Shown: in pieces, positions 4,590 through 24,296 of the stretch
Layout: each line of letters begins with the position of its first letter
Numbering within the stretch: the first letter of the stretch is position 1
Virus record (IMG/VR): IMGVR_UViG_2837229570_000001
Origin: an uncultured virus (IMG/VR IMGVR_UViG_2837229570_000001)
Taxonomy: Duplodnaviria > Heunggongvirae > Uroviricota > Caudoviricetes
DNA: 28,898 bases
Strand: one strand, 5' to 3'
The notes under the pieces: generated by a model
Databases searched by the model: none
Seen by the model: only the letters and a program-made list of their open reading frames with translations
What the model was told of the DNA's origin: nothing
Program-made: the position numbers and the translations under genes

Positions 4590-4678
4590 GAAGCGCGGAG
4601 TGCCTGGGAACAGGCACAAAAAGGCCGCCCCGGGAGGGGCGGCAAAGGAAATGTATGGGGGAGAACAATGGGAGGCGG

Positions 4679-4852
4679 TCAGTTCTTGGTGCGTTTGGCG
4701 ACGCGGAAGAGCCAGATGCTGCCGATGATGCCCGCGATAGCGCCGAAGACCATCCAGGTCTCGGGAAGGGCCAGACCACAGGCCAGCGCTATTAGACTCA
4801 TAAATAACAAGGAAGAAGCTGTGTAATAAAAAAAAGCCTTGTTGCTTATCAA
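4679..4852 (-). CDS. Small two-TM membrane peptide, copy 1 (57 aa)
   Basis: TTG start after GGGAGTG; hydrophobic with basic tail RVAKRTKN; own promoter TTGACC-17-TATCAT. Confidence 0.7.
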   Translation of the reverse strand: MISNKAFFYYTASSLLFMSLIALACGLALPETWMVFGAIAGIIGSIWLFRVAKRTKN

Positions 4853-4930
4853 GAAGATCACTCCCATTCAACCTGATAATCCAATGATAACAGAATTTAA
4901 AAACGCGGTCAAGGAGAGGAGACAATACAG

Positions 4931-5017
4931 ATGGCGGAGGGTATCAACACGAGGGAACTGAACAAGGGGTCCGAGAGACGATAAAAGGGCTGAGGAAGGT
5001 CACGTTCAAGCTGACCC
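4931..5017 (+). pseudogene. Frameshifted 5' fragment of tape-measure-like gene A
   Basis: MAEGINTRELNKG / IKGLRKVTFKLT versus MAESIHIKELNKGIRETVKGLREVTIKLT. Confidence 0.75.
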
Positions 5018-5041
5018 TGCAAGGAGAACAACGGGAGGCGG

Positions 5042-5212
5042 TCAGTTCTTGGTGCGTTTGGCCACACGGAAGAGCCAAATGCTACAAGGAATGCCCGGAA
5101 TACTCGCAACGATCATCCAGGTCTCGGGAAGGGCCAGACCGCAGAGCAGCGCCAAAAGACTCATAAGCAATAAATTGGTAGCAATGATATAGAAAAATGC
5201 CTTGTTACTCAA
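5042..5212 (-). CDS. Small two-TM membrane peptide, copy 2 (56 aa; not in the ORF track)
   Basis: Hand translation MSNKAFFYIIATNLLLMSLLALLCGLALPETWMIVASIPGIPCSIWLFRVAKRTKN; GGAGGTG RBS; promoter TTGACT-17-TAACAT. Confidence 0.7.
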   Translation of the reverse strand: MSNKAFFYIIATNLLLMSLLALLCGLALPETWMIVASIPGIPCSIWLFRVAKRTKN

Positions 5213-5288
5213 GAAGGTCCACCTCCCCAGCAGGATAACACAATGTTACCAGAATTTAAAGATACAGTCAAGGAAAGGAGAAACACAG

Positions 5289-6935
5289 ATGGCGGAGAGC
5301 ATCCATATCAAAGAACTGAACAAGGGGATACGAGAGACGGTGAAAGGGTTACGGGAGGTCACGATTAAACTGACCCCGCTGGAGGAAGCGCTGCCGGAGG
5401 TCACCCAGGGCATCGGCAAGCTGGAGCACGGCGCGGAGGAGGCGGGCTCGACCCTGGCGGAGAGCGGGAAGCGATTCACCAAGCCGGAGGACGGCGGGGA
5501 GGCGGGGACCTCCAGGCTGGCGGGCGGCATATCAAAGGCGGCACTGGACAATCTGGTCAAATCAGGAATGTGGAGTACGATAGGCAGGACGACCAGCGCC
5601 GCGGCCGAGGCAGGGTTCTCCAGCCTGTTGGGCGACACGGCGGGGAGCATGGCGTCCCACATCGTGTCGGACGCGGGGACCGGGCTGATGTTCGGGCTGC
5701 TGAACGCCACGGCGGCGGGGGGCGGCATCGCGGCCAGCGCGGCCACAGCGGCGGGCGGCATCGCCGGCGCGATGGGGGGCCTGGGGAGCGTTCTGGGCGG
5801 CCCGGTCGGGGGGCTGGTGGTGGGCGCCCTGTTCGGCGTGGCGGAAGGGATCGTGGAGTCCTTCGAGAAGCAGGACCAGGCCTTCCAGGACTATGTAAAG
5901 AGCCAATACGACCGGGTGATGCAGGAGCAGCAGGCCATGCTGCAGCGGGGCACCACCCTGGCGGCGGCGGGAGACGAGGAGTACCAGGCGGCCATGCGCG
6001 GCCTGGAGGAGGCCCAGAACGAGCTGGAGAAGCTGATGGGTCAGGGCTTTATCGACACCCGCAAGGATGGAATCCAGGCGCAGAAGGAGTGGCTGGAGGA
6101 GCAGACCAAGCAGAAGGAAGAGGGGGAAACCGGGCTGGGGCTGGGGGACGCCTACGGGCTCATCGGCTCCTTCCAGGCCTCCCTGGAGAACGACAAGGAG
6201 CGGCTGGAGCGGGATGCTCTGAGCATCGTGATGGGAGATGGGGAAAAAATCAGCAGCTACCAGGACAGCGCCCAACGGGAGCGGCTGGAGGAGCTGCAGG
6301 CCCAGTACCAGGCGCTGGAGGAGCAGTACGGCGCGACCGACAGCGAGGAGATGCAGAGAAAGATCGGGGCAAAGATGGGGGCGCTGCTGGCGGAGGCCCA
6401 GATCATCGCCGCCAACGAGTACAACGCCTCCGAAGGGGCCCAGCTCATGCAGGAGTCCAACCTGGCGCTGGTACAGGGCATCCGGGACGACTCGGTGCTG
6501 CAAAAGGAGTATTACAACGCCGGGTACACGATGGGAGAGGAGTTCAGCCAGGGCATCCTGGCGGCCAGGATGGAGAACGCCTTCTCCCCGGTGGACTACG
6601 GCCTGGCCCCGGAAGAAGGGGGGGCCGGAATCGGCTCGGCAACATCGGAGCCGGAAAACAATGCGATCCCATCGGCATACAAGGTGAAGGCGGACAGCGG
6701 CATCCATGGGCGCTATGCCTACGGCCTGGACTATGTGCCTTACGACAACTTCCCGGCCCTGCTACACCAGGGCGAGCGGGTGCTGACGGCCTCCCAGGCA
6801 CGGTCCGCGGACCGGGGCGGCGGGGTAAACGTGACCTTCTCGGGACCGGTCACCGTCCGGGAGGAGGCGGACCTGGACCGGCTGGCGGCCAAGCTGGCCG
6901 AAAAGGTGGCCCGGGCGGCCCTGCTGCGGGGCTGA
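5289..6935 (+). CDS. Tape-measure-like protein A (548 aa), outside the tail operon
   Basis: AAAGGAG RBS; Gly/Ala hydrophobic zipper, long helical region, C-terminal AYGLDYVPYDNFPALLHQGERVLTA..VREEADLDRLA typical of tape-measure C-termini. Confidence 0.7.
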   Translation: MAESIHIKELNKGIRETVKGLREVTIKLTPLEEALPEVTQGIGKLEHGAEEAGSTLAESGKRFTKPEDGGEAGTSRLAGGISKAALDNLVKSGMWSTIGRTTSAAAEAGFSSLLGDTAGSMASHIVSDAGTGLMFGLLNATAAGGGIAASAATAAGGIAGAMGGLGSVLGGPVGGLVVGALFGVAEGIVESFEKQDQAFQDYVKSQYDRVMQEQQAMLQRGTTLAAAGDEEYQAAMRGLEEAQNELEKLMGQGFIDTRKDGIQAQKEWLEEQTKQKEEGETGLGLGDAYGLIGSFQASLENDKERLERDALSIVMGDGEKISSYQDSAQRERLEELQAQYQALEEQYGATDSEEMQRKIGAKMGALLAEAQIIAANEYNASEGAQLMQESNLALVQGIRDDSVLQKEYYNAGYTMGEEFSQGILAARMENAFSPVDYGLAPEEGGAGIGSATSEPENNAIPSAYKVKADSGIHGRYAYGLDYVPYDNFPALLHQGERVLTASQARSADRGGGVNVTFSGPVTVREEADLDRLAAKLAEKVARAALLRG

Positions 6936-6952
6936 ACGGGACCTTCCGTCCA

Positions 6953-7573
6953 TTACAGCGGAGGCAGCACAGTGAGCATGGCAAGCCCGCCGGTGACGAT
7001 ATAGGAGAAAGACGCGCTCTCCCCGTTGAAGAAATTCATGGTGCCGTCGGTAAAGGCGGCATTCGCAATATCAAGGGATTCGTCCAACGACGCGATTTCC
7101 TCACTGGAGGAAAAGCCGCCGGTGACGACCGCAAGGTAGCTGCCGAATACTTTGGCATCGCTCTCACTCAGTTGAGAAGAATCTCCAGTGAGGAATACCT
7201 GTGTAAGTTCGCCGGAATCCTTGGCCTCATACAGAATGCAGCTGGCGCCGGGACAGATGCTGTAAGAGTACGCCACCAAATCCCCGTTTTCGGCATCGGG
7301 CAGTTCAGATATGTCCGGATCATTTTCAAAGGCGTTGGGAAGATCGCTGGAGGAAAACGTATTGGACATGGCCTCGGCCATAGCGGAGCGGGAGAGGCCA
7401 AACGTGGCGCCGGTATAGGGAGTCACCTCGCCGGCAGGAGGAGCAGAGACCGCAACAACGGGAGACTGGCCGGGATCGCCCGTCGGAGCAGGCTGATCGG
7501 AAGAGGCAGAGCCGCAGGCGGCTGTGAGGGTAAGGCACAGGGACAGAGTCAGCAGGCAAGAGAGCTTTTTCAC
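6953..7573 (-). CDS. Acidic lipoprotein (moron-like)
   Basis: MKK-hydrophobic-LTAAC lipobox, Pro/Ser linker; AGGAGG RBS; lower GC than neighbours. Confidence 0.8.
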   Translation of the reverse strand: MKKLSCLLTLSLCLTLTAACGSASSDQPAPTGDPGQSPVVAVSAPPAGEVTPYTGATFGLSRSAMAEAMSNTFSSSDLPNAFENDPDISELPDAENGDLVAYSYSICPGASCILYEAKDSGELTQVFLTGDSSQLSESDAKVFGSYLAVVTGGFSSSEEIASLDESLDIANAAFTDGTMNFFNGESASFSYIVTGGLAMLTVLPPL

Positions 7574-7833: not shown

Positions 7834-8076
7834 ATGTCATTGGAGACGGAAGAGAGGATCGGCCCGGAGGGCTACACCCAGGCGGCGCTGGAGGCCCTGG
7901 CCGACATCGCCCTGGGACGGAAGTCCTACCCCGCCCGGGACAAGGACGGGCGGGAGGTCCCCTGCCAGCCCACGGTGGCCGAGCGGCTCAAGGCGCTGGA
8001 GCTGCTGAGCCGGTGGAGCGGGGAGGCCGGCACCGGAGCCCGCGCAGAACCGGCCAGGATCGTGGACGATGTGTGA
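7834..8076 (+). CDS. terS: Short terminase small subunit (oligomerisation and C-terminal parts only)
   Basis: ALADIALG..PTVAERLKALELL..RIVDDV; overlaps terL start; TTG at 7840 may be the real start. Confidence 0.7.
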   Translation: MSLETEERIGPEGYTQAALEALADIALGRKSYPARDKDGREVPCQPTVAERLKALELLSRWSGEAGTGARAEPARIVDDV

Positions 8077-9325
8077 GATCAGATGCTCCTCCCTCCTGGC
8101 CCCGGCCTTCCACTGCGTCCACCGGGATGTGAAGGCGGGGGGACACACCCACTACTGGCTCCCCGGCGGGCGGGGCTCCGGCAAGTCCTCCTTCGTGGGG
8201 GTGGAGATCCCCCTCTGCCTCATGCGGGACGCCCAAAAGGGCGTGATGAGCCACGCCGTGGCCCTGCGGCGCTACGGCGTGACCCTGCGGGAGTCGGTCT
8301 ACGCCCAGCTCCTGTGGGGGGTGCACGCCCTGGGGGCCGGACGGCTCTGGGAGGCGCGGCTCTCCCCCCTGTCCCTGTGCTACCGCCCCACCGGACAGCG
8401 CATCCTCTTCCGGGGCGCCGACGACCCCATGAAGCTCAAGTCCATCCGACCGGAGCGGGGCTACATCAAGTATGCCTGGTACGAGGAGGCCGACGAGTTC
8501 GAGGGGGAGGAGAAGGTCCGGGCCGTCAACCAGTCCCTGATGCGGGGCGGGGAGGACTTCGCCTTCTTCTACACCTTCAACCCGCCCCGCAGCGCCCGGA
8601 ACTGGTGCAACCAGTATGTGAGGGGGGAGCACCCCGGGACCCTGGTGCACCGGACCGACTACCGCACGGTGCCCAGGGCCTGGCTGGGAGAGCCCTTCCT
8701 GCTGGAGGCCGAGCACCTGCGCCTGGCCAATCCCCAGGCCTACGCCCGGGAATACCTGGGGGAGGTGACGGGCACCGGCGGCGAGGTGTTTTCCAACGTG
8801 ACGCTGCGGACCATCTCCGAGGAGGAGATCGGGCGGTTCGACCACATCCGCCGGGGGCTGGACTGGGGCTACGCCGCCGACCCCCTGGCCTACAACGTCT
8901 GCCACTACGACCCCGTCCGGCGGCGGCTCTACCTCTTCCGGGAGCTCCACCGGGCGGGGCTCACCAACCGCAGGACCGCCCTCCTCCTCCGGGAGGAGGG
9001 CGGGGAGGGGCGCATCGTCTGCGACTCCGCCGAGCCCAAGAGCATCGCCGAGCTGCGGGACTACGGCCTGCGGGCCGTGGGGGCCCGCAAGGGAGCGGGG
9101 TCCGTGGCCTTCGGAATACAATGGCTCCAGGACCTGGAGGAGATCGTCATCGACCCCGCCCGCTGCCCCGAGAGCGCCCGGGAGTTCACCGGCTACGAGC
9201 TGGAGCGGGACCGGGACGGCGGCTTCCGGGCCGGATTCCCCGACCGGGACAACCACCACATCGACGCCGTGCGCTACGCCTGCGAGGACGATATGGCGGG
9301 CCCGGCGCTGCATATCCTGAAGTGA
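8069..9325 (+). CDS. terL: Terminase large subunit, PBSX/SPP1 type
   Basis: Walker A GGRGSGKS, Walker B WYEEA, FNPP, nuclease motifs GLDWG, DSAEP, NHHIDAVRYA all intact. Confidence 0.95.
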   Translation: MCEIRCSSLLAPAFHCVHRDVKAGGHTHYWLPGGRGSGKSSFVGVEIPLCLMRDAQKGVMSHAVALRRYGVTLRESVYAQLLWGVHALGAGRLWEARLSPLSLCYRPTGQRILFRGADDPMKLKSIRPERGYIKYAWYEEADEFEGEEKVRAVNQSLMRGGEDFAFFYTFNPPRSARNWCNQYVRGEHPGTLVHRTDYRTVPRAWLGEPFLLEAEHLRLANPQAYAREYLGEVTGTGGEVFSNVTLRTISEEEIGRFDHIRRGLDWGYAADPLAYNVCHYDPVRRRLYLFRELHRAGLTNRRTALLLREEGGEGRIVCDSAEPKSIAELRDYGLRAVGARKGAGSVAFGIQWLQDLEEIVIDPARCPESAREFTGYELERDRDGGFRAGFPDRDNHHIDAVRYACEDDMAGPALHILK

Positions 9326-9424
9326 AACGGGCTCCGGCTCCACGGCCGGGGCGACAGAGCGGCGGCAGCCGCGACGACGAGAGAGGAGGAGCAGGGACCC
9401 GGAAGCAGGGCCCTGCGGCACAAG

Positions 9425-10771
9425 ATGACATACACACAGACCGAGCTGGTGAGCGCGGCCCTGGCCGACCCGGACCGGGCCCCCATGCGCCTGCATGAGA
9501 TCGTCAGCGAGGAGATCCGGGTTTTTCAAAGCTCGCCCCGGTACCGGGAGCTGCTGGAGGCCGACGCCTACTACCGCAACCGCTCCGACGTGCAGCGCAA
9601 GGCCGGCAACGGGCCGGGGCGCTCCAACGTCCGGCTGGAGCACCCCATCTACAAAAAGCTGGTGGACCAGAAGGCCCGCTACCTCCTGTCCCGGCCCTGG
9701 GCGGTGGAGACGGAGGACCGGGCCTATGGACAGGCCCTGGAGGAGCTCTTTGACGCCGGGTTCCGGCACACCGTGAAGGCCCTGGGGCGGGATGCGGTGA
9801 AATCGGGGGTGGCCTGGCTCCAGCCCTATATCGGCCCGGCGGGGAGGCTGGAGTTCCTCCGCCTGCCCGCCCACGAGGTGGTCCCCCTGTGGCGGGACGC
9901 CGGGCGGAGCGAGCTGGACGGCTTCCTCCGGGTCTACCCCCAGACCGTCTACGCCGGGCGGGAGGCCCGGCGGGTGGAGCGGGCCGAATACTGGTCCGGG
10001 GACGGCCTGCGGCGGTTCCTCTGCGCCGACGGCAGCGGGCGGTTCCGCCCCGACGGGGAGCCCGAGCCCCACTTCACCCTGGGGGGCCGGGGCTACAACT
10101 GGAGCAGGGTCCCCCTGGTATGGCTGCGCTACAACGAGGAGGAGCTGCCCCTGTGCCGCTATGTCCGGGACCTCATCGACGACTACAACTGGCAGACCTC
10201 CGTCACCGCCGACGCCCTACGGGACGTGGCCAAGTTCGTCTACATCCTCAAAAACTACGGCGGGGCCGACCTGGACGAGTTCGTGCGGGACCTGCGGCAG
10301 TGTCTGGCCGTGAAGGTGGAGGGCGACGGCGGCGTGGACAAGCTCCAGACCGACCTGGACGTGTCGGCGGTGCTGGCCTTCCTGGAGCGGGAGCGGCGGG
10401 ACCTTTTCGATTTCGCCTCCGCCGTGGACACCAGGGACCCTGACCTGGGCAGCGCCTCCGGCACGGCGCTGGGCTTCCGGTACATGGATCTGGACGCCGA
10501 CTGCGCCGACCTGGCCGACGAGCTCCAGGCCGCCTTCCGGCGGCTCAAGCCCTTCCTGGACACCTGGCTCCAGGCCACGGGCCGGGGGGACTTCTCCGGC
10601 GCGGCGTTCCGTGTGGAGTTCAATATGGATATGCCGGTGAACGAGAGCGAGGTCATCGCCAACGTCAACGCCAGCCGGGAACTGTTGTCCCCCCGCACCC
10701 TGCTGGCCAACCATCCCTGGGTGGCCGACGTGGAGCGGGAGCTGCGGGAACGAGAGGAGGTGAACCTATGA
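9425..10771 (+). CDS. SPP1 gp6-like portal protein
   Basis: KKLVDQKARYLL, LIDDYN, SGTALGFRYMDLD, HPWV motifs; follows terL. Confidence 0.92.
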   Translation: MTYTQTELVSAALADPDRAPMRLHEIVSEEIRVFQSSPRYRELLEADAYYRNRSDVQRKAGNGPGRSNVRLEHPIYKKLVDQKARYLLSRPWAVETEDRAYGQALEELFDAGFRHTVKALGRDAVKSGVAWLQPYIGPAGRLEFLRLPAHEVVPLWRDAGRSELDGFLRVYPQTVYAGREARRVERAEYWSGDGLRRFLCADGSGRFRPDGEPEPHFTLGGRGYNWSRVPLVWLRYNEEELPLCRYVRDLIDDYNWQTSVTADALRDVAKFVYILKNYGGADLDEFVRDLRQCLAVKVEGDGGVDKLQTDLDVSAVLAFLERERRDLFDFASAVDTRDPDLGSASGTALGFRYMDLDADCADLADELQAAFRRLKPFLDTWLQATGRGDFSGAAFRVEFNMDMPVNESEVIANVNASRELLSPRTLLANHPWVADVERELREREEVNL

Positions 10772-11241
10772 TCGCGGAACCCATTCGGGCCCTCCTGGGA
10801 GAGGACCTGGCGGGGCGGGTGGAGGAGGTCCTCCGGGGTGCGGGACCGGAGGGCGGAGACCTGGACCTGGTGGCGGGCAACGACGGCAGCTATCTCCCCG
10901 CGGGGGAGGTGGAGCGGCGCCTCCGCACCGCCGCCCTGCGGGCGGGTCTGGCCGGGCTGGTCCACGACCCCGACGATATCCTGCCCCTGGTGGACCTGGA
11001 CGCGGTGGAGACCGACGGCCGCGGCGGCCTCCGTACCGACCTGGAGGCTCTGCTCGCCCCCATCCGGACCGCCAAGCCCTACCTCTTCCGGACCGGGGAG
11101 GCGGAGCCGCCGGTCCTGGCCGGCGCCGTCCCCGCGCCCCCCGGCGGCGCGCCCCGCAGAAGCTATACCATGGAGGAGCTGGGACGCCTTACCATGGAGG
11201 AGTACAGAGAAGCGCGGAGGATAGGCGCGCAGGGGAACTAA
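10768..11241 (+). CDS. Capsid scaffolding protein (short)
   Basis: Upstream of capsid; NDGSYLP, KPYLF, MEEYREARR motifs. Confidence 0.65.
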   Translation: MIAEPIRALLGEDLAGRVEEVLRGAGPEGGDLDLVAGNDGSYLPAGEVERRLRTAALRAGLAGLVHDPDDILPLVDLDAVETDGRGGLRTDLEALLAPIRTAKPYLFRTGEAEPPVLAGAVPAPPGGAPRRSYTMEELGRLTMEEYREARRIGAQGN

Positions 11242-11466
11242 GGCGTCATGGAGACGAAAAAACAGGTTGGCCGGAGGCCAACGGCATTTTTCGCGGAATG
11301 ACGGCTTAGTGACCCGTGGGCGCGCCCAATCCGCAGCGTGACAGCCCCGAAGCGCGCAGGGGGGCTGAGGCGGGACAGAGCCGGCTTCAGAACAGGCCCG
11401 CGCCCTCCGGGATAGAAGCTCCGCAGGAAACCATCACAACAAACAGGAAAAAGGAGAGGAATTACA

Positions 11467-12564: not shown

Positions 12565-12610
12565 AACAAAGCGCGGAGCCGCACGGCGAAACAGAAAGGA
12601 AACGGATGGG

Positions 12611-13736: not shown

Positions 13737-13749
13737 CGGAGAGACGAGT

Positions 13750-15719: not shown

Positions 15720-15738
15720 AAGAGAGGAGTGAACGAAC

Positions 15739-16197: not shown

Positions 16198-16229
16198 CGC
16201 AGGCGGGAGGGGGCGCGGGGCCCCCTCCC

Positions 16230-16483: not shown

Positions 16484-16572
16484 GGAAGGGGGCACGGGCC
16501 CCCTCCCCTCCCATGTCCGTGGGGCGGAAGCAAAATGAAACAATATGAAAAGATAAAGGAGCGGTATTTTTT

Positions 16573-17150: not shown

Positions 17151-17196
17151 GCGGAAGTCCCGGCCCGGCGGCAAGGCCGCCAGGCCGACAGACCGG

Positions 17197-17225
17197 TGGA
17201 CAGGGCAAAGGTTTTCCAGTATAAT
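17197..17225 (+). promoter_or_regulatory. Cassette promoter 1
   Basis: TGGACA-17-TATAAT. Confidence 0.75.
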
Positions 17226-17266
17226 AAAAAGGAACCCAAAGGAGAAAACTGGAAAGGATGATAGGT

Positions 17267-17485
17267 ATGTTTGGAGAAAAGAAGAAAAAGGAAGAGCCCA
17301 GGTTTGTTGAAACAATGGTTCCCAGTAAAGGCGGTTGTTTTACGCGCATATTGGTAGATACGGAAAATGGAATTCAATATTTATTTGTAGACTCATCGGA
17401 GGGGGGGGGACTCACGGTGATGGTGGACGAGGACGGAAAGCCCCTGATCAACGAGGCGTACAGACGCAAAAAGGAAAAAGAATAA
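17267..17485 (+). CDS. DUF6440-like small protein, copy 1
   Basis: MFGEKK..RF..ILVDTENGIQYL..GGLTVMVDEDGKPL; GGAAAGGA RBS. Confidence 0.8.
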   Translation: MFGEKKKKEEPRFVETMVPSKGGCFTRILVDTENGIQYLFVDSSEGGGLTVMVDEDGKPLINEAYRRKKEKE

Positions 17486-17500
17486 GAATAAGTGGTGCGG

Positions 17501-17531
17501 AAAGCAACTGCCGGGAGGCAGTTGCTTTTTT
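17501..17531 (+). terminator. Intrinsic terminator
   Basis: AAAGCAACTGCC GGGA GGCAGTTGCTTTTTT. Confidence 0.85.
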
Positions 17532-17541: not shown

Positions 17542-17570
17542 TGGACAAGGAGGGGATGTTCCGGTATAAT
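17542..17570 (+). promoter_or_regulatory. Cassette promoter 2
   Basis: TGGACA-17-TATAAT. Confidence 0.75.
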
Positions 17571-17611
17571 GGGGAAGAATCCAAAGGGGAAAACTGGAAA
17601 GGATGATGGGC

Positions 17612-17836
17612 ATGTTTGGAGAAAAGAAGAAAAAGGAAGAGCCCAGGTTTGTTCAGTGTTATTCTGGAGTTGCAAAGGATTTTGGTAATGTAAAAATACT
17701 GGTGGATACGGAAACGGGAGTACAATATTTAATTACATGGAGTACGGAGGAGGCAAGTGGATGCGGCGTGCTTGTGGACCAGGACGGAAAACCCCTGATC
17801 AACGAGGCGTACAGACGCAAAAAGGAAAAAGAATAA
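17612..17836 (+). CDS. DUF6440-like small protein, copy 2
   Basis: MFGEKK..ILVDTETGVQYL..VLVDQDGKPL. Confidence 0.8.
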   Translation: MFGEKKKKEEPRFVQCYSGVAKDFGNVKILVDTETGVQYLITWSTEEASGCGVLVDQDGKPLINEAYRRKKEKE

Positions 17837-17850
17837 GAATAAGTGGTGCG

Positions 17851-17882
17851 AAAAGCAACTGCCGGAAGGCGGTTGCTTTTTT
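17851..17882 (+). terminator. Intrinsic terminator
   Basis: AAAAGCAACTGCC GGAA GGCGGTTGCTTTTTT. Confidence 0.85.
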
Positions 17883-17897: not shown

Positions 17898-19367
17898 TTG
17901 ACAGCGGAACAGACACTGAAATTTTATGATCAACAGCTTGCGGCGGCGGACAGCATGAACCGTGCGATGGAACAGATGACAAACGCCGTGGAGCGGGTGG
18001 GAGCCGCAATCCAAGCGGCGGCAGACCGGATGGGACTGCTCCAGACATCGACAGAAAAAACAACACAGAAGGCGACCAATTTAAAATCGCCTTTTGACTC
18101 CATGGTCAAGACAATGAGTTCAAAAGCGCAAGAAGGCATCTCTAAGTTAAAAACACTCTTAAATCCCAAAACTTTGTTAAGCGGCAAAAGCCTTCTTTGG
18201 CCCCTCGCCATTGACATCGGCTGGCAGCTTTTCGGCAACGACATTATCAACATTCTCACTCCGGCATTGACGGTGCTGGAGTCCTTTGCCGGGGTGGTAC
18301 GGGGCGTGCTGGGGACGGTGGCCCCTCTTTTTGCCCCCGTTGTGGGGGTGCTGGAGCGGATGGCCGCCGCCCTGGACTGGGTGGCGGCCAATATGGACGC
18401 GCTGGCCCCCGTGATTGGGGGCGCGGCGGCAGCACTGATGGTCTTTAACGCAAAACTGATTGCCGGAACAATCGCGTCCTGGGCCCATACGGCGGCCACG
18501 GCAATTTCGAGCGTGACGCAAAAGGTATTTAACACATCGCTGCTGGCCTGCCCGCTCACCTGGATCGCGCTGGCTATCGGTGTGGTCATTGGACTGCTCT
18601 ACCGTTGGATCCAGTCTGTGGGAGGGATCCGCACTGCATGGGCGATCGTGGTGGATGAGGTGAGCTATTTCCTGGATAAGATGGATCTGGGCTTTATGCG
18701 CACTTTTTATGGTATCCTCGATTATATGGGGGATTTTAAGGTCGGATTTTTGACTGGATTACAGGATGTGGTAAACGGCGGCATCGACCTCCTCAACAAG
18801 CTGATCGAAAACGTCAACAAACTGCCGGGAATCGCGATTCCCCTGATTGAACAGGTTACCTTTGGCGCAGAGGCCGCTTTAAAGAATGAGGAGGCAAAGC
18901 GGGCGCGAGCCGAGACAATGGCAAAATGGGAGACAGAGGCAGAGGAAAACCACCGCCTGCGACAGATGAGGATCAATGAAATGAAAAGTAAAAGCGCAGA
19001 AGAGGCCGGAGAAAGCGCATTGTCTGCGGGAACCGACCCGGGCGCTGCCGCAGAACAGCCCAACGAGATGGAGGTCATATATGGAGGAATGGATCCGGAC
19101 ACATACGGCGTGGGCGGCGGTCTGAATGTAAACCATGTGGAGAGCCTGGGGCGCGTGGAAAACGAGGTGAGCGTGGCAAAGGAGGACCTGGACCTGATGC
19201 GGGACGTGGCGGAGATGCGCTTCTTGCAGAATTTCGTCAGCCTGACGCCCACGGTGACGCTGAACGCCAGGGTGGACCGACAGGTGGACGTGGACGCGAT
19301 GCTGCGGACCATAGAGCGCAAGTTGGAGGAGGAGATCCTGATGTCGGCGGAGGGAGCCTATCTGTAA
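17898..19367 (+). CDS. Tape measure protein B (489 aa, canonical position)
   Basis: Between chaperone and LysM gene; helical with TM-like segments (ACPLTWIALAIGVVIGLLY); C-terminal EDLDLMRDVAE..TPTV..AEGAY; TTG after GGAGGTG. Confidence 0.85.
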   Translation: MTAEQTLKFYDQQLAAADSMNRAMEQMTNAVERVGAAIQAAADRMGLLQTSTEKTTQKATNLKSPFDSMVKTMSSKAQEGISKLKTLLNPKTLLSGKSLLWPLAIDIGWQLFGNDIINILTPALTVLESFAGVVRGVLGTVAPLFAPVVGVLERMAAALDWVAANMDALAPVIGGAAAALMVFNAKLIAGTIASWAHTAATAISSVTQKVFNTSLLACPLTWIALAIGVVIGLLYRWIQSVGGIRTAWAIVVDEVSYFLDKMDLGFMRTFYGILDYMGDFKVGFLTGLQDVVNGGIDLLNKLIENVNKLPGIAIPLIEQVTFGAEAALKNEEAKRARAETMAKWETEAEENHRLRQMRINEMKSKSAEEAGESALSAGTDPGAAAEQPNEMEVIYGGMDPDTYGVGGGLNVNHVESLGRVENEVSVAKEDLDLMRDVAEMRFLQNFVSLTPTVTLNARVDRQVDVDAMLRTIERKLEEEILMSAEGAYL

Positions 19368-19380: not shown

Positions 19381-19461
19381 TGGACAAAAGAGAACCTTTT
19401 CAGCGTCATGGAGAAAAGAAGCCCAAGCGAAAAAGCAACTGCCGGGAGGCGGTTGCTTTTT
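19381..19461 (+). pseudogene. Collapsed (empty) DUF6440 cassette: decayed promoter, GEKK remnant, terminator
   Basis: TGGACA-17-CGTCAT, GGAGAAAAGAAG, then the AAAAGCAACTGCC hairpin terminator at 19431-19461. Confidence 0.65.
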
Positions 19462-19484
19462 CTATCAAAAAATGAGGTGAGAGA

Positions 19485-19586
19485 ATGGAAATGGAAGAGG
19501 CGCTGCAGAGATATGACCGGCGGGTCCACAGGACCCGCCAATGGGACAGAGCGGCGAATGCGGCGGCGAAGGGGGCGCGCCGATGA
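19485..19586 (+). pseudogene. 33-aa remnant of another tape-measure paralog, coupled to the LysM gene
   Basis: MEMEEALQRYDRRV aligns with MNAAETLTQYERQL (TMP C); same AAAAAATGAGGTGA leader; ATGA overlap. Confidence 0.55.
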
Positions 19587-20227
19587 ACCGATACAGAATG
19601 TATCTCATTATGGGCAGCCTGGAGCTGCCCTTGCAGGTGCTGCCGGAAAAGCTCGCGGTGCGCGCCGCGGGCCGGAACGAGACGGCGGAGGTGCTGGAGC
19701 TGGGTGAGGTCCTGCTCCTGCGGGGCAGGGGACTGCGCAAGGTGGAGTGGGAGGGGCTCCTCCCCGCGTGGAAGCTCCCCTGCATGGACGGACAGCCGCT
19801 GACGCCCATTCTGGCGGTGCGGTATATCCAGCGCTACCGGGACAAAAAAGAGCCGGTGTACCTCCGGCTGGAGGGGACGGACCTGGACCTGGACGTGCCC
19901 TTCGGCATCGAGGATTTCAGCTATGAGGAGCGGGGCGGGGAGCCCGGCGACCTCTATTACTCCATCCAGCTCACCGAATGGCGGAGCTACGCCCCCAGCC
20001 GCGTCACCCTGCCCGAGGGGGAGGTCCGGGAGGCGGACCGGGCCGGCGCGCCAGAGGACGCCGGGAGCGGCAGCTATACGGTGGTCCCGGGGGACAGCCT
20101 GTGGGCCATCGCCCGGCGGTTTTACGGAGACGGGACCCAGTGGCGGAAGCTCTACGAAGCCAACCGGGCCGTGGTGGGGGCCAACCCCAATCTCATCTAT
20201 CCGGGGCAGGTGTTGACGATACCATGA
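19583..20227 (+). CDS. xkdP: XkdP-like LysM baseplate/tube initiator protein
   Basis: LPLQVLPEKL..GDLYYSIQLTEWR; LysM YTVVPGDSLWAIARRFYG..NPNLIYPGQVLTIP. Confidence 0.9.
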   Translation: MNRYRMYLIMGSLELPLQVLPEKLAVRAAGRNETAEVLELGEVLLLRGRGLRKVEWEGLLPAWKLPCMDGQPLTPILAVRYIQRYRDKKEPVYLRLEGTDLDLDVPFGIEDFSYEERGGEPGDLYYSIQLTEWRSYAPSRVTLPEGEVREADRAGAPEDAGSGSYTVVPGDSLWAIARRFYGDGTQWRKLYEANRAVVGANPNLIYPGQVLTIP

Positions 20228-21174
20228 GTTTATCAGTGCTTTACCGGGCGCCGGGGGAGGAGGAGGCCTGGGACGTGACGACCCTGGTCACGGCCTGTAC
20301 CTGGACCACCAAGCGCACGGGTTCCCCCGCCGCCCTGGAGCTGACGGTGCTGCGCAGCGAGACGGCGTGGGTCTGCGGCGGCATGGTGGCGGCCCGGCGG
20401 GACGGGGAGACCTTTTTCCAGGGCTATGTGTTCAAGGTCAGCTCCGGCGAGGGGGAGGAGCTGAACCTCACCGTCTATGACCAGCTCCGCTACCTGAAAT
20501 ACAAGGAGAGCTACGTCTTTGAGGGCCAGCGGGCGGACCAGATCCTGGCCCAGATCGCCGCCGACTTCAAGCTGAAGACCGGGGACCTGCCCAACACCGG
20601 CTACGTTATTCCCCGGCTGGTGGAGGACGGGACCAGCCTCCTGGACATCATCCTGAGGGCCCTGGACCTGACCCTGGTCCACGGCGGGCAGATGTTCTAT
20701 CTGTGGGATGACTGCGGCGCGCTGCGCCTGGGGGAGGTGACGGGCGAGGGGGACCTGCCCGTGATCGGGGACGGGAGCCTAGCCACCGGCTACACCTACG
20801 ATGTGGATATCGACGGTGAGACCTACAACCAGATCAAGCTGGTCCAGGGGGACGGGGAGGAGGGAAACCGCAAGAGCGTGATGCGGCACGACCCGGAGAC
20901 CCAGGCGCTGTGGGGCATCCTGCAGGACTATCAGCAGGTGGACGGGGAGATGAACGAGGCCCAGATGCGCCAGGAGGCCGAACGGAGGCTGGAGCTGTAC
21001 AACCGGCCTGCCAGGACCCTGGAGCTCCGGGCCCTGGCGCTGCCGGAGGTGCGGGCGGGAAAGACGGTATACATCCGCATCGGCCGGGAGGGGCTGGAGC
21101 AGCCCTTCCTGGTGGAGGAGGCCCGCCACGACCTGATGGCGGAGACCATGAATTTGAAAGTGAAGGTGATTTGA
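20224..21174 (+). CDS. xkdQ: XkdQ/YqbQ-like baseplate hub protein
   Basis: YDQLRYLKYKESY..NTGYVIP..LWDDCGAL..TYNQIKL..WGILQ. Confidence 0.88.
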   Translation: MSLSVLYRAPGEEEAWDVTTLVTACTWTTKRTGSPAALELTVLRSETAWVCGGMVAARRDGETFFQGYVFKVSSGEGEELNLTVYDQLRYLKYKESYVFEGQRADQILAQIAADFKLKTGDLPNTGYVIPRLVEDGTSLLDIILRALDLTLVHGGQMFYLWDDCGALRLGEVTGEGDLPVIGDGSLATGYTYDVDIDGETYNQIKLVQGDGEEGNRKSVMRHDPETQALWGILQDYQQVDGEMNEAQMRQEAERRLELYNRPARTLELRALALPEVRAGKTVYIRIGREGLEQPFLVEEARHDLMAETMNLKVKVI

Positions 21175-21417
21175 ATGCTGGAACAGATCAAAAAAATCGC
21201 GCGGCAGAGCGACGAGTGCGCCGCGCCGGCCATGGTGCTCTACGGCACGGTGACCGGGCTGGACCCCCTGCGGGTGCGGGTGGACAACCGCTTCGAGCTG
21301 GGGGAGCGGGCCCTCACCCTGCTGCGGGGGACCCGTGAGAGCCTGGAAGCGGGGGACGGCCTGGCCCTCCTCCGCAACCGGGGCGGACAGGAATTCCTGG
21401 TACTGGGGAGGCTGTGA
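21175..21417 (+). CDS. XkdR/DUF2577-like spike protein (short)
   Basis: GTVTGLDPLRVRVD..LEAGD..LLRNRGGQEFLVL. Confidence 0.78.
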   Translation: MLEQIKKIARQSDECAAPAMVLYGTVTGLDPLRVRVDNRFELGERALTLLRGTRESLEAGDGLALLRNRGGQEFLVLGRL

Positions 21418-21845
21418 GCGTGCTGCCGACACAGGGAGGAATCCTCTTGCAGGGGGGCACACCCCTGGTGCCCGCCGCGCAGCGGCCCAGCCGGACCTAC
21501 CGGGCGGACTTCGCCGCCGGGCGCATCGACGGCTTTACCGACGGGCGGGAGGCCATGGAGCAGGCCATCTATCAGATCCTGCACACCGAGCGCTTCGCCT
21601 GGCCCATCTACTCCTGGAATTACGGCGCGGAGCTGGGCCGGCTCACCGGCCGCAGCGTCCGGGTGGCCCAGGGCGAGCTGCCCCGCCTCCTGCGGGAGGC
21701 CCTCACCCAGGACGCCCGCATCACCGGCGTCCGGGACGTTACCGTGACCCAGTCCGGGAAACGGGAGGCGCTGGTGCACTTTACCGCCGAGACCGTGTTC
21801 GGCGACGTGGATGCGGCGGCCCCCCTCCGGCTGGGAACGGTCTGA
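21414..21845 (+). CDS. xkdS: XkdS/DUF2634-like baseplate protein
   Basis: EAMEQAIYQILHTERF..IYSWNYGAEL..EALTQDARI..TVFGD. Confidence 0.88.
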   Translation: MSVLPTQGGILLQGGTPLVPAAQRPSRTYRADFAAGRIDGFTDGREAMEQAIYQILHTERFAWPIYSWNYGAELGRLTGRSVRVAQGELPRLLREALTQDARITGVRDVTVTQSGKREALVHFTAETVFGDVDAAAPLRLGTV

Positions 21846-21884
21846 GGGAGCGCCGCGGAGATCACGCCCGGGGAATGTGGGGAA

Positions 21885-21913
21885 TGGACAGGACGGGCCG
21901 GGTCTGGTATCAT
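21885..21913 (+). promoter_or_regulatory. Cassette promoter 3
   Basis: TGGACA-17-TATCAT with TGn. Confidence 0.7.
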
Positions 21914-21952
21914 GGAGGGGACCCGAGGGAAATATGGAAAGGAGAGGATACC

Positions 21953-22171
21953 ATGTTTGGAGAAAAGAAGGAAAAAAGGTTTGTAAGGACGGTGCATGAG
22001 ATAGCAGATAAGGGGTCTGTCGGAGGGATCTTCGTGTATGCGGACACCGAGACCGGAGTGCAGTACATACATATCGTGGGAGATGGCAGAGGGGGCCTGA
22101 CGGTGCTGGTGGACCGGGAGGGCAAGCCCCTGCTGCGGGAGGACCTGATCAAGAAGCCATCCGAACCATAA
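21953..22171 (+). CDS. DUF6440-like small protein, copy 3 (72 aa)
   Basis: MFGEKKEKRF..YADTETGVQYI..GGLTVLVDREGKPL. Confidence 0.8.
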   Translation: MFGEKKEKRFVRTVHEIADKGSVGGIFVYADTETGVQYIHIVGDGRGGLTVLVDREGKPLLREDLIKKPSEP

Positions 22172-22183
22172 CAGAGGACAAGA

Positions 22184-22221
22184 GCAAAAAGGCAGCCGCC
22201 GGAAGGAGGCTGCCTTTTTGC
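22184..22221 (+). terminator. Intrinsic terminator
   Basis: GCAAAAAGGCAGCC..GGCTGCCTTTTTGC. Confidence 0.8.
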
Positions 22222-22321
22222 AGGAAAGAAAGCATGAGGTGAAAAAATGAACGCGGTCCCCCTCCGGCTGGGAACGGTCTGAGGGAGCGCCGCGGAGATC
22301 ACGCCCGGGGAATGTGGGGAA

Positions 22322-22350
22322 TGGACAGGACGGGTCGGGTTTGGTATCAT
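22322..22350 (+). promoter_or_regulatory. Cassette promoter 4
   Basis: TGGACA-17-TATCAT with TGn. Confidence 0.7.
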
Positions 22351-22389
22351 GGAGGGGACCCAAGGGAAATATGGAAAGGAGACGATACC

Positions 22390-22599
22390 ATGTTTGGAGA
22401 AAAGAAGGAAAACAGGTTTGTGAAACTCTCAATAGAAGGGGTAAAAGATGTGGCGTGCATGCAAGTAGTGGTGGATACATGGACTGGTATTCAATATCTG
22501 TTTGCAGAGTCATTTGGAAATGCGGGCGGCCTGACGGCACTTTTGGATGAGGATGGGAAGCCCCTGATCTGTGAGGAGTATCGGCGCAAAAAGGAGTAA
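22390..22599 (+). CDS. DUF6440-like small protein, copy 4 (69 aa)
   Basis: MFGEKKENRF..VVDTWTGIQYL..GGLTALLDEDGKPL. Confidence 0.8.
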   Translation: MFGEKKENRFVKLSIEGVKDVACMQVVVDTWTGIQYLFAESFGNAGGLTALLDEDGKPLICEEYRRKKE

Positions 22600-22621
22600 G
22601 CCGGAGAAAGGAGAGCGGACC

Positions 22622-22827
22622 ATGTTTGGAGAAAAAAGGAGTCAAGGTTTGTAACAATACTAAGCGAGTCGGCAAAGGGGGGTGGGATAGCCCGAGTTAT
22701 GGTAGATACGGAAACAGGAATACAATACTTATTTGTATATGCCTTAGAAGCAGGTGGTCTCACGATACTTGCGGATGAGGACGGGAAGCCCCCCATTAAC
22801 GAGGAGTATAGACGTAAAAAAGACTGA
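22622..22827 (+). pseudogene. DUF6440-like copy 5, frameshifted by one base in an A6 run
   Basis: ATGTTTGGAGAAAAAAGG stops after 10 codons; -1 frame gives KESRFVTILSES..MVDTETGIQYL..GGLTILADEDGKP..RKKD*; span 206 nt. Confidence 0.8.
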
Positions 22828-22833
22828 ACAATT

Positions 22834-22868
22834 AAAAAGCAACCGCCTTCCGAGGCGGTTGCTTTTTT
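22834..22868 (+). terminator. Intrinsic terminator
   Basis: AAAAAGCAACCGCCT..AGGCGGTTGCTTTTTT. Confidence 0.85.
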
Positions 22869-22895
22869 ACTGGAAAAAATGAGGTGAAAGAGAAT

Positions 22896-24296
22896 ATGAA
22901 CGCAGCGGAAACACTGACGCAGTATGAGCGGCAGCTTGCGGTGCTGGACCGGATGGAGCGGATCCTGGGGCGAATGACGGCGGCGGCGGACCAGATGGCC
23001 GGGGCCGTCCAGAGGGCGGCGGACCGGATGGGGGAGCTGCTGGCCTCCACCCAGAAGACGGCGGCGCAGTCGGTGAACCTGAAGGCGCCCTTTGACGGCG
23101 CGGCGCAGTCCATAGCAGGGGCCATGGTAAAGGGATTGGACCAATTTGAAAACAACCTAACCCCCCAGGGCCTGGTCCTCTCCCTGGCCGTCAACCTGGG
23201 CTGGAAGCTCTTCGGCGACGACATCATGAGCGTTCTCAATCCGGCCATGACGGTGCTGGAGTCCTTCGCGGGGATGGTACACAGCACCCTGGGGGCGCTG
23301 GCCCCCTTCTTCACGCCGGTGGTGTGGGCAGTGGAGCTGCTGGCCCAGGGCATCGACTGGATGGCGGCAAAAATGAATACGCTGATGCCCATTATTCTGG
23401 GTCTGGCGACGGCCATGGCCATTTTCCACAAGGCGACCATTGCCAGCGCGATGGCAACAAAAATCCATGCGGCGGGCACGGTTCTGCACACGGTGGTTAC
23501 CAAGGCCCATACGGTGGCCACCAATGGGTTGAAACTGGCCCAGGCGGCCCTCGACATGGTGCTCAGCACATCCCCTCTGGGGCTGATTGCCCGGCTGGCG
23601 GGCGTCGCGGTGGGAATATTCGCGGCGTGGACCATGCGGGTGGGAGGACTGAAGAACGCCATCGGTATTTTGTTCAAAGGCATTATCGGCGGCATCAACT
23701 GGGTGCTGGAGCTGCTGAACAAGATACCGGGGGTGAATATCCCCATGATCGCCAGCCTAGAGATCGAAAAGGGACCGGCGGCCCAGGCGGAGGCGGAAGC
23801 GACCACGACGGCGGCTTTGGGGGCGGCGGAGAGCCCGGTGTTCCCGACACCGGAGGACCCCTATGCCGCTGTCATTCCGCCGGACCTGGCGAACAAGAAC
23901 GCCCCCCTGGACTACGGCGCGATGCTGGCGGAGCAATCCCCCCTCTCGTACGGCATGGACAACTACGTCACAGCGAGGTGGGGAGAGGACGCCGCGACCG
24001 GGGCCTTTTCCAACGGGTACCAGACCCTGGCGGACTCGCTGAAGCTGGTGGAGACCGTGGAGCGGGTCCAGGCGGTGGAGCTGCTGGAGAGCGAGGTGAG
24101 CCTGTCGGAGGAGGACAGGGAGGCGCTGCTGGGCGCCATCACACAGCGCCCGGTGTCCAGGGTCCTCAACCTCTCCCCCACCGTGCACCTCACCGCCTAT
24201 GTGCGCAGCGAGCCGGACCTCTATCAGCTCAAGAACATGATCGAGCAGGTGCTGGAGGAGGAGATCTGCGCCTGCGCGGAGGGGGAGCACCTGTGA
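22896..24296 (+). CDS. Tape measure protein C (466 aa), paralog of B, inserted between xkdS and baseplate J
   Basis: Shares AADRMG, NLK.PFD, GW.LFG.DI, TVLESFAG, PTV.L.A.V, LEEEI..AEG with B. Confidence 0.82.
   Translation: MNAAETLTQYERQLAVLDRMERILGRMTAAADQMAGAVQRAADRMGELLASTQKTAAQSVNLKAPFDGAAQSIAGAMVKGLDQFENNLTPQGLVLSLAVNLGWKLFGDDIMSVLNPAMTVLESFAGMVHSTLGALAPFFTPVVWAVELLAQGIDWMAAKMNTLMPIILGLATAMAIFHKATIASAMATKIHAAGTVLHTVVTKAHTVATNGLKLAQAALDMVLSTSPLGLIARLAGVAVGIFAAWTMRVGGLKNAIGILFKGIIGGINWVLELLNKIPGVNIPMIASLEIEKGPAAQAEAEATTTAALGAAESPVFPTPEDPYAAVIPPDLANKNAPLDYGAMLAEQSPLSYGMDNYVTARWGEDAATGAFSNGYQTLADSLKLVETVERVQAVELLESEVSLSEEDREALLGAITQRPVSRVLNLSPTVHLTAYVRSEPDLYQLKNMIEQVLEEEICACAEGEHL

Follow-up and report, generated by a model that had tools for sequence, protein, structure and literature searches.

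Gene 15 of phage HK97, among the closest described counterparts of the tape measure protein (TMP) loci analyzed here, is a moron situated between the genes of the tail chaperone and the TMP, with a promoter and a terminator of its own and an atypical GC content, and the prophage expresses it (available part of PMC3594210). Exclusion by its product, gp15, depends on the tail region of the incoming phage, and chromosomal homologs of the YebO family occur outside prophages (same part of PMC3594210). Tab, an 83-residue protein of Pseudomonas phage JBD26 with no known domain, is encoded by a constitutively expressed moron in the late operon; it recognizes the TMP of an invader and stops tails from being assembled, and to protect itself the prophage depends on a linked function expressed late, anti-Tab (available part of PMC10884400). 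Ltp of Streptococcus thermophilus phage TP-J34 is a prophage-expressed surface lipoprotein that blocks DNA injection (available part of PMC3952083). The locus described here lies in a 28,898-nucleotide (nt) window from the uncultured-virus record IMGVR_UViG_2837229570_000001, which is a PBSX/Xkd-type contractile-tail prophage-like element of a gut Firmicute and which extends the known moron-beside-TMP theme. Ltp also reportedly acts on the TMP, and its genes are said to lie in the lysogeny module and not beside the TMP gene.

The window holds three TMP homologs (A, B and C), with antisense hydrophobic peptide genes (memP1 and memP2) ahead of A and genes of the family DUF6440 ahead of B (D1 and D2) and C (D3 to D5). 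D1 and D2 occupy the same site as HK97 gene 15, carry the same kinds of predicted signals and likewise have solo chromosomal relatives. As far as the available description of HK97 goes, gp15 differs in being an inner-membrane protein of a Gram-negative siphovirus, whereas DUF6440 is predicted to be soluble, stands in hypervariable arrays of one to four genes and moves with a TMP homolog to non-canonical sites. DUF6440 resembles Tab in size, predicted expression signals and TMP neighborhood; Tab, compared by description only and within the available part of its report, lies between terminase genes, owes its specificity to the TMP C-terminus and comes with no arrays and no extra TMP genes. An antisense lipoprotein-like gene beside A (6953-7573) could be of the Ltp kind, although it matches no sequence family.

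In its gene order of sheath-tube-XkdN-(TMP)-XkdP-XkdQ-XkdR-XkdS-XkdT-XkdU, with matching Pfam families, the element resembles PBSX of Bacillus subtilis, as it does in having a repressor and an ImmA-like partner at its left end and no recognized replication genes. PBSX has one long TMP (XkdO) at the canonical site, whereas this element has three homologs without the TMP_3 domain at three sites, together with DUF6440 arrays. Versions of the element that are otherwise ~99% identical differ in one unit, which is also the one duplicated: the small genes together with ~100-160 codons at the start of a TMP homolog gene. Tentatively, we favor a reading in which the lysogen expresses the small genes as factors directed against TMPs, and each of them is linked to a TMP N-terminus with which it is compatible.

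Small genes and tape measure 5′ ends form the exchanged unit

The three loci comprise the following features, in residues (aa) where proteins are measured; GC3 is the GC fraction at third codon positions.

4679-4867, minus strand: memP1, antisense hydrophobic 62-aa peptide gene, read from the open reading frame (ORF) and its translation; GC 0.51
4931-5044, plus strand: 5′ fragment of an A-like gene (~first 38 codons), a duplication scar also present in the relative L067
5042-5212, minus strand: memP2, antisense hydrophobic 56-aa peptide gene, paralog of memP1, divergent from A
5289-6935, plus strand: TMP homolog A, 548 aa, ahead of the terminase; residues 1-110 hypervariable; GC3 0.88
6953-7573, minus strand: antisense gene for a lipoprotein-like product of 206 aa, whose translation shows a signal peptide and Cys; GC 0.575
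17197-17531, plus strand: DUF6440 cassette D1 (promoter 17197-17225, gene 17267-17485, terminator ~17499-17530); GC3 0.51
17542-17882, plus strand: DUF6440 cassette D2 (promoter 17542-17570, gene 17612-17836, terminator ~17850-17881); GC3 0.44
17898-19367, plus strand: TMP homolog B, 489 aa from TTG at 17898, at the canonical TMP site after XkdN; presence varies
19429-19462, plus strand: terminator of the DUF6440-cassette type left behind after B (repeat family D7; fold -25.2 kcal/mol)
21816-22421, plus strand: region starting with the D3 cassette (promoter 21885-21913, gene 21953-22171, terminator ~22184-22221)
~22236-22258, plus strand: short C-start-like fragment 3′ of D3, part of the C-locus scar
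22253-22421, plus strand: 169-nt repeat of the XkdS 3′ end, a promoter and a D start, 96% identical to 21816-21984
22322-22868, plus strand: D4 and the frameshifted D5 as one unit (D4 promoter 22322-22350, gene 22390-22599; D5 22623-22827; terminator ~22834-22867)
22896-24296, plus strand: TMP homolog C, 466 aa, located after XkdS and before XkdT; residues 60-100 form a hypervariable patch

The same element occurs in two IMG/VR and eleven metagenome contigs, whose structural proteins are 97-100% identical. Between this element and L067, 44 of the 45 variable columns of A fall in residues 1-120, with one difference along the other ~430 residues; the two share 60-73% identity in their memP genes and 99-100% in the flanking genes. 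Among five B alleles, residues 41-160 hold 22 of 29 variable columns. C has 24 of its 35 variable columns in residues 60-100, where four patch alleles are found (seven full-length alleles, counted without the full-length C of L032 and the partial copies in L043 and L045). In L044 the flanks are 100% identical to this element while C has a synonymous divergence (dS) of 0.057, which points to allele exchange at C. The DUF6440 copies, of which there are at least eight variants, have conserved ends and two hypervariable stretches; between neighboring copies the promoter/5′ and 3′/terminator parts share 85-96% nucleotide identity, and the middles do not align.

Ratios of nonsynonymous to synonymous divergence (dN/dS, by NG86, for this element against its relatives) show that the structural genes are under purifying selection, with 0-0.11 for the sheath; the values are 0.10-0.35 for B, 0.30-0.73 for XkdT (few changes) and 0.60-1.07 for C as a whole gene. 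The value for C thus reaches the level near 1 that the earlier note had associated with decay, yet the clustered changes and intact frames look like a swapped patch; outside the patch, dN is 0.005-0.011 and dS 0.009-0.016, a ratio of 0.54-0.91 on few changes. A decaying pseudogene was rejected as an explanation of C, since the 466-aa frame is kept in 7/7 full-length alleles and the changes cluster in the patch.

The duplicated unit equals the variable unit. At the A locus, memP1 and memP2 sit inside a ~360-nt tandem duplication of the antisense peptide and the A start, with direct repeats at 4660-5044 and 5023-5403 (71-81% identity). The C locus is scarred by the 169-nt repeat (96%) with its preceding C-start-like fragment, and the B locus, in relatives and in a Lawsonibacter metagenome-assembled genome (MAG), by truncated B-type 5′ ends between DUF6440 genes. 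That MAG holds the single further locus combining DUF6440 with a B/C-type TMP that was found in a scan of one genome per species. Its Xkd-type prophage is 73% identical to this element in TerL and sheath and 78% in coat, and the block between its head-tail adaptor and tail terminator genes consists of a PF10112 moron, a DUF6440 gene, a fragment resembling the B N-terminus, three DUF6440 genes and a TMP homolog of 450 aa that is 35% identical to C. A DUF6440 array with a B/C-type TMP is hence found at three positions in Xkd-type late operons, two here and one in the Lawsonibacter MAG. These three positions, the changes in cassette number, the focused variation and the scars support the earlier suggestion that a small-gene array plus a TMP is a repeating, diversifying module.

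The number of DUF6440/TMP cassettes differs among near-identical elements, with one or two DUF6440 copies before B and up to four before C. B is present in 6/7 contigs that span XkdN to XkdP. In L041 a DUF6440 gene stands alone at the canonical site and B is missing, which leaves C as the sole TMP homolog of that tail module; in L040 and L048 DUF6440 copies lie on both flanks of B, an arrangement that is a substrate for a B deletion such as that in L041. L034 has a canonical, TMP_3-bearing TMP (X, 544 aa) after the chaperone, followed by two DUF6440 genes and B, and the last ~110 residues of X are almost identical to those of B. Behind B, L035/L032 and L040 have a DUF6440 gene, then a truncated B start (~42 codons), then genes for a PF10112 membrane protein and for a Gly-zipper protein of 117 aa. 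D2 is skipped in a contig of DNA run X5. C is present at every covered site (in full here and in L034, L032, L040, L041, L042, L044 and L046, and in part in L043 and L045).

A neutral origin is one way to read this pattern: the TMP region would be a recombination hot spot that collects unrelated morons, with passenger TMP copies produced by unequal crossing-over and variation that reflects recombination tracts. The repeats at cassette ends and the apparent products of unequal crossover (B between DUF6440 copies in L040/L048, and its deletion in L041) are consistent with such an origin, as are the allele exchange in L044, the unrelated morons at the same sites (PF10112 membrane protein and Gly-zipper proteins), the absence of strict pairing between D genes and C alleles, and the placement of DUF6440 at classical moron sites (integrase, lysis) in other viruses and in housekeeping contexts in related genomes. 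It accounts less well for the recurrence of a DUF6440 array with a B/C-type TMP at three positions at ~35% protein identity, with 0 DUF6440 matches in 84 control loci, or for two non-homologous small-gene types (DUF6440 and memP) that share an architecture and a scar type. In addition, the extra TMP copies retain intact frames in every allele, and tract boundaries fall repeatedly at ~codon 100-160 in three different TMP genes. We consider a purely neutral origin conceivable but somewhat unlikely.

Further observations concern the variants themselves. PF10112 (Halogen_Hydrol) membrane proteins recur at cassette sites (L032:139-981, L040:5276-6115, L039:7615-8523 and 14652-15389): two variants have one behind B, the Lawsonibacter prophage has two, and some come with a Gly-zipper protein; the Gly-zipper proteins beside these inserts have 117 aa and 180 aa (L034:3683-4225). 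The Lawsonibacter prophage also contains ~1.2 kb (L039:6372-7615; GC ~0.52) without a convincing ORF between the adaptor and the first moron. Both D1-type copies of L048 (9697-10029 and 11515-12045) are frameshifted at a G-run that is intact here (17395-17405); this frameshift and the one at the A-run of D5 could be homopolymer switching or assembly error in low-coverage contigs. In L034, XkdN and the short ORF after it (2951-3668, compared with 16484-17202) share 77-83% nucleotide identity with this element, and tube and sheath 99.7-100%; judging from this divergence, a single recombination tract seems to have brought in X together with chaperone genes of its own. In a 1.6-kb metagenome contig (L049:161-1599), B codons 1-183 are fused to X codons 249-544 in reverse-complement orientation, a junction that may be an inversion or a mis-assembly at shared repeats.

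The three tape measure homologs

All three ORFs that the earlier note had called tape measures, at 5289-6935, 17898-19367 and 22896-24296, are present and are TMP homologs. Its division of them also holds: B and C are clear paralogs (BLASTP E 2e-62; 30% identity over the full length and 41% over the first ~260 aa), and A, which has no similarity to B (best E 3.2), is by sequence comparison a TMP of another family. B (E 6e-47) and C (E 7e-21) match PHROG 1068, ‘tail length tape measure protein’, and are the only copies of their type in the whole genome.

Residues 120-494 of B are 37% identical to TMPs of 615-640 aa, one of them of 622 aa, that bear TMP_3 at about residues 87-282. When the B/C family is compared with canonical TMPs by hhalign, the C-terminal ~320 columns (143-463) align with a probability of 99.9; because only these columns align, the first ~140 residues of B and C are taken as a different module. 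As judged from these alignments, B is the C-terminal ~350 aa of a canonical TMP fused to a novel ~140-aa N-terminal module. A degenerate TMP_3 domain was considered for this N-terminus and rejected on the same column pairing. Few proteins have this module: among 1.84 billion representatives scanned, it is spanned completely by P0181, P0182, P0185 and P0190 and partially by a few others, and when a profile hidden Markov model (HMM) of it was run over 401 same-family genomes, the complete module turned up in 1/401, this element's own genome. A search for C in the genomes of 60 relatives gave 0/60, and viral scans for more B/C-type loci returned one canonical TMP with P0188 and none with P0182.

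A is similarly related to a longer protein. Its C-terminal 350 aa (residues 226-575) are 41% identical to residues 388-735 of a 738-aa Herbinix TMP, residues 36-256 align to residues 25-249, and the stretch of the Herbinix TMP that A skips is the TMP_3 domain (254-419). Most of A's ~700-aa relatives carry PF20155, and those named by their source, among the matches listed, are tape measure proteins. Two other Xkd-type prophages resident in the genome have TMPs of 738 and 741 aa, with which the C-terminal half of A shares 39% and 33% identity, and these TMPs belong to the same family as A. A profile scan with a short A-like protein (P0081) returned canonical TMPs only, at <=53% identity. The site of A, ahead of the terminase and outside the tail module, is a moron site.

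A, B and C show no TMP_3 (PF20155) match when E values as high as 1 are admitted; the domain is found in X (E 2e-26), P0008, P0012 and P0073 (residues 254-419), and the relatives of A, B and C have 615-740 aa. The domain is also missing from many other TMP families. With two homologs in the tail module and three in the element, the rule of one TMP per tail module is broken, and the canonical position, from the chaperone to the baseplate hub, is filled by B and not by A or C. The GC3 values are 0.68 for B, 0.86 for C, 0.88 for A, 0.87-0.95 for structural genes and 0.41-0.67 for DUF6440 genes, so that B and the DUF6440 genes are compositionally foreign and A and C native-looking. C would be a working tape measure, since it is constant, has a native composition and is the only copy in the L041 tail module. 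The tape measure in actual use is most likely C, in a displaced position between XkdS and XkdT. We infer that B was acquired at the canonical site and that recombination between the DUF6440 repeats on its flanks adds and removes it.

In a reading that covers part of the second option of the earlier note, A and B would be dominant-negative decoys that poison the tail assembly of rival Xkd-type phages, such as the two other resident prophages, or soak up the TMP-directed inhibitors of rivals. All three homologs lack a domain that their relatives carry, A resembles the TMPs of two other resident prophages in its C-terminal half (39%/33%) and sits at a moron site outside the tail module, and the last ~110 aa of B are nearly identical to those of the canonical X that precedes B in L034. 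However, identities of 33-39% are low for co-assembly with the TMPs of rivals, and B and C, without promoters of their own and located after strong terminators, are probably expressed late. The element also has no TMP_3-bearing TMP; if it makes particles, one or more of the copies without TMP_3 must therefore do the work of a genuine tape measure. A decoy function is accordingly very unlikely in our judgment.

Small genes and the meaning of their linkage

The 3.22-Mb genome has no DUF6440 matches beyond the five genes here, two of them ahead of B and three ahead of C. Pfam DUF6440 (PF20037) is above cut-off at 17258-17485, 17603-17836, ~21953-22171 and 22390-22599, with the fifth copy, D5, at 22623-22827; the five matches score 53.8-67.3 bits against a gathering cut-off of 26.5. 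The structural model (pLDDT 84) predicts a soluble protein with a four-stranded sheet and a C-terminal helix, and no signal or membrane segment was found in DUF6440. Fold searches gave no significant match, whether by Foldseek (best E 0.32, an AP2 DNA-binding domain, TM 0.42) or by VIA-align against 48,161 chains (best Z 4.1), and an ESM Atlas search returned DUF6440 clusters only.

Four matches to TGGACA-N17-TATAAT/TATCAT occur in the whole window, where 0.03 are expected and 0/100 shuffles reached 4. There are thus fewer matches than the five DUF6440 genes, D5 having no promoter of its own. Five hairpin-plus-U terminators (-21.7 to -30.4 kcal/mol, z -4.5 to -5.8) include one directly after each of D1, D2, D3 and the D4-D5 pair, and a fifth that stands alone after B, at a position that a DUF6440 gene occupies in L040, L048 and L035. 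B and C lack promoters of their own and follow strong terminators. The counts of two and three DUF6440-like genes given in the earlier note are thus right, whereas its assignment of sigma-A promoters fails for the third gene before C, which is frameshifted and promoterless. With a predicted promoter and terminator, deviating GC3, insertion between conserved genes and variable copy number, DUF6440 has the attributes of a moron in the sense of Juhala and Hendrix.

At the A locus, the two antisense membrane peptide genes that had been proposed are present as hydrophobic paralogs, and their proposed promoters are promoter-like sites on the minus strand, at 4912-4884 for memP1 and at 5271-5243 and 5212-5184 for memP2; memP1 also has a terminator-like site at 4643-4624. 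The lipoprotein-like gene at 6953-7573 has no Pfam or PADLOC family.

DUF6440 is found in many settings. A local HMM recovered 0 matches over 84 control loci (933,105 bases), its sensitivity to distant members being unproven; these comprise 80 viral A-family TMP loci, L147, L051 and the two other resident prophages, and 82 of them are canonical-TMP loci. In related genomes, DUF6440 occurs in 9/60 as single genes, with two loci in one genome, beside housekeeping and assorted genes including pheST, a pseudouridine synthase, UDG, LexA and transporters. When 39 proteins of the window were searched near these 10 chromosomal loci, none was found bar DUF6440 itself and one SLH match. Thirteen other viral DUF6440 loci lie near integrase, lysis or replication genes; L054 has a divergent DUF6440 gene immediately upstream of the TMP gene, and L060 one that is two genes downstream. 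TMP-linked DUF6440 arrays or stacked TMP cassettes are not described in the titles and abstract openings of the literature searched; ‘two tape measure’ is used in phage genome papers on Shady, SuMu and phiCbK, and a full-text search for DUF6440 turned up a Listeria genome report, each as far as the matching text goes.

DUF6440 proteins could also be dedicated chaperones or regulators of the B/C N-terminal module that replace functions tied to the missing TMP_3 region. Their tight adjacency to this module in three diverged lineages, with none in the 84 control loci, would fit such a role. Yet sigma-A-type promoters and terminators uncouple DUF6440 from the late operon, copy number varies from one to four, sequences are hypervariable, solo chromosomal copies exist without any TMP, and a copy persists where B is deleted (L041). 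We regard this role as highly improbable.

Orphan modules of the contact-dependent inhibition (CDI) and Rhs systems combine the variable end of a large delivered protein with an adjacent small gene and tandem orphan units. The loci here are similar in that the large protein has a variable end, a small variable gene lies next to it, and tandem units still contain part of the large gene. They differ in polarity, as the variable end is N-terminal and the small genes are upstream or antisense; no toxin domain was found, and the large protein is a structural tail component.

In the first option of the earlier note, the element might form a PBSX-like killer particle whose TMPs are ejected as polymorphic membrane-damaging effectors, the N-terminal modules setting specificity and DUF6440 and memP providing immunity. 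The variable end of a delivered protein does adjoin arrays of small variable genes with orphan-like fragment scars, and, as in PBSX, no integrase or replication gene is recognized between the repressor pair and the late activator. Solo DUF6440 genes outside phage contexts, in the 9/60 related genomes, would fit orphan immunity. The hydrophobic Gly/Ala-rich segments in the translations of A, B and C would suit membrane damage; however, hundreds of TMPs match this hydrophobic region, which makes it a normal TMP feature, and Pfam, NCBIfam, PHROGs and PADLOC found no toxin or enzymatic domain in A, B or C. DUF6440 lacks a signal or membrane segment, D5 is broken beside a C that is retained, and C, as the only TMP homolog in the L041 tail module, is probably structural. 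We think this effector and immunity scheme quite unlikely. A variant of it, in which DUF6440 proteins would be cytoplasmic immunity or exclusion specificity proteins that recognize the hypervariable N-terminal module of ejected TMPs, is unlikely too, if slightly less so; it would make the loci an exchangeable self/non-self cassette of PBSX-like particles, with stacked TMPs as a repertoire, solo genes as orphan protection, and memP and A as an independent invention.

The reading that we favor, that of lysogen-expressed factors aimed at TMPs, starts from the small, low-GC transcription units predicted at the 5′ end of each TMP homolog, which are of the kind expressed from a repressed prophage. 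Firstly, the lysogen would make the small proteins, namely soluble DUF6440 at the B and C loci and membrane peptides, perhaps with the lipoprotein, at the A locus. Secondly, these would act on the N-terminal part of the TMP of incoming or co-resident related particles and so, much as HK97 gp15, Ltp or Tab do, prevent entry, killing or the assembly of tails. An element with such a factor would have to retain a compatible TMP N-terminus, and the pair would be inherited and exchanged together. Finally, recombination at the conserved cassette ends (the promoter/5′ end, the 3′ end/terminator and the TMP C-terminus) would stack and delete cassettes, which could lead to two or three TMP genes per tail module.

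In favor of this reading we count the anatomy and predicted signals of the loci, the shared lack of TMP_3, the recurrence of the module in the Lawsonibacter MAG against 0 matches in the 84 control loci, the variants among relatives, the focused variation and the scars, the purifying selection on structural genes, and the HK97 gene 15 and Tab precedents. Several results weigh against this preferred reading. At the C locus, D5 is invariant across four C patch alleles, and one array (D4, Dmid, D5) is paired with two different patch alleles, so that no one-to-one co-variation links D genes and C; the cross-strain comparison proposed in the earlier note gives joint variation at the A and B loci but no strict pairing of small genes with C alleles. 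The co-variation at A and B may itself be just one recombination tract over neighboring genes. D5 is frameshifted here, with an A6 run in place of the A7 found in 3/3 relatives compared. Linkage of DUF6440 to TMPs in other genomes, whose absence the earlier note would have taken as refuting, is present in the Lawsonibacter MAG and in 2/13 viral loci, which lie <=2 genes from a TMP, but is lacking in 11/13 viral and 10/10 chromosomal loci (0/10 linked, in nine related genomes). DUF6440 is predicted to be a soluble beta protein, unlike the membrane and lipoprotein exclusion factors that act on TMPs, and the specificity determinant of Tab is the TMP C-terminus and not the N-terminus (available part of PMC10884400). 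PADLOC recognized no defense family in the small or TMP proteins of the element, giving two weak coiled-coil matches only (E 9e-4 and 3e-3).

Element, host setting and significance

The sequence context is a complete 3.22-Mb genome, in which the element has the following further features.

1060-1626: host cyclophilin gene, adjoining the element's left end (Pfam Pro_isomerase, E 3e-50)
1661-2125: host smpB, adjoining the element's left end (Pfam SmpB, E 5e-60)
2232-2690, minus strand: ImmA/IrrE-like metalloprotease at the element's left end (Pfam Peptidase_M78, E 4e-16)
2691-3194, minus strand: XRE-type repressor at the element's left end (Pfam HTH_3, E 1e-7)
4182-4589, plus strand: putative late-gene transcriptional activator (PHROG 248 ‘transcriptional activator’, E 2e-5)
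7834-16197, plus strand: packaging, head and tail genes from a small ORF (possibly TerS) to the tube (Pfam and PHROG matches)
16573-16980, plus strand: XkdN-type tail assembly chaperone (Pfam Phage_TAC_5, E 1e-29)
within 16573-17150, plus strand: short ORF 3′ of XkdN, read from the sequence, in the XkzB position
19541-21845, plus strand: baseplate genes XkdP (LysM), XkdQ (YQBQ, 20224-21174), XkdR-like and XkdS-like wedge (Pfam/PHROG)
24385-28105, plus strand: baseplate J (XkdT), Mu gp48-like (XkdU) and fibre-like proteins and a small ORF, at the element's right end (Pfam/PHROG)

From Pfam and PHROG scans of the long plus-strand ORFs, the late genes run from TerL through an SPP1-type portal, scaffold, P22-type coat, connector, adaptor, tail terminator, sheath and tube to the XkdN chaperone, and on through LysM/XkdP, YQBQ/XkdQ, XkdR-like, XkdS-like wedge, baseplate J/XkdT and Mu gp48-like to fibre-like genes. 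The Xkd gene order is that expected of a PBSX-like defective prophage. We take the short ORF after XkdN to be analogous to XkzB. Between the repressor pair and the terminase, the only recognizable products are a DUF6291 protein and the putative late activator; no integrase or replication family was recognized by Pfam, PHROG or NCBIfam between 2232 and 8076, where several ORFs have no family. An NCBIfam search with 15 proteins gave no match.

The ORF at 1-537 (plus strand, 178 aa, 5′-truncated) has no Pfam family, and its translation may suggest a recombinase-like C-terminus. The gap between tube and XkdN (16198-16572) is another variable insert, with 376 nt here, 378 nt in L048 and 71-78 nt in L040/L041/L044; an ORF in this region (16164-16442, 92 aa) has no family. 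Two further Xkd-type prophages reside in the same genome, at G000:C1:1032832-1033314 (L038) and 1141735-1142217 (L037). They carry a canonical TMP_3-bearing TMP (741- and 738-aa frames) between XkdN-like and XkdP-like genes and no DUF6440, so three related tail modules are present in one cell.

Known prophage proteins that exclude phages or block their assembly through TMPs are in each case single genes. Here, the natural variation of one prophage lineage delimits a compact exchangeable unit, which one element carries at three loci and which another genus has at a third position of the tail operon. Should the coupling of small genes and TMP N-termini be functional, it would provide a role for DUF6440, a family of Bacillota genomes and phages, and would explain why morons settle beside TMP genes. 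It would also mean that a tail module can carry alternative tape measures, and would offer a tractable specificity system, with variant small proteins set against variant TMP N-termini, in abundant gut anaerobes. If it is not functional, the element would still illustrate clearly how structural genes are stacked and deleted when moron repeats recombine unequally.

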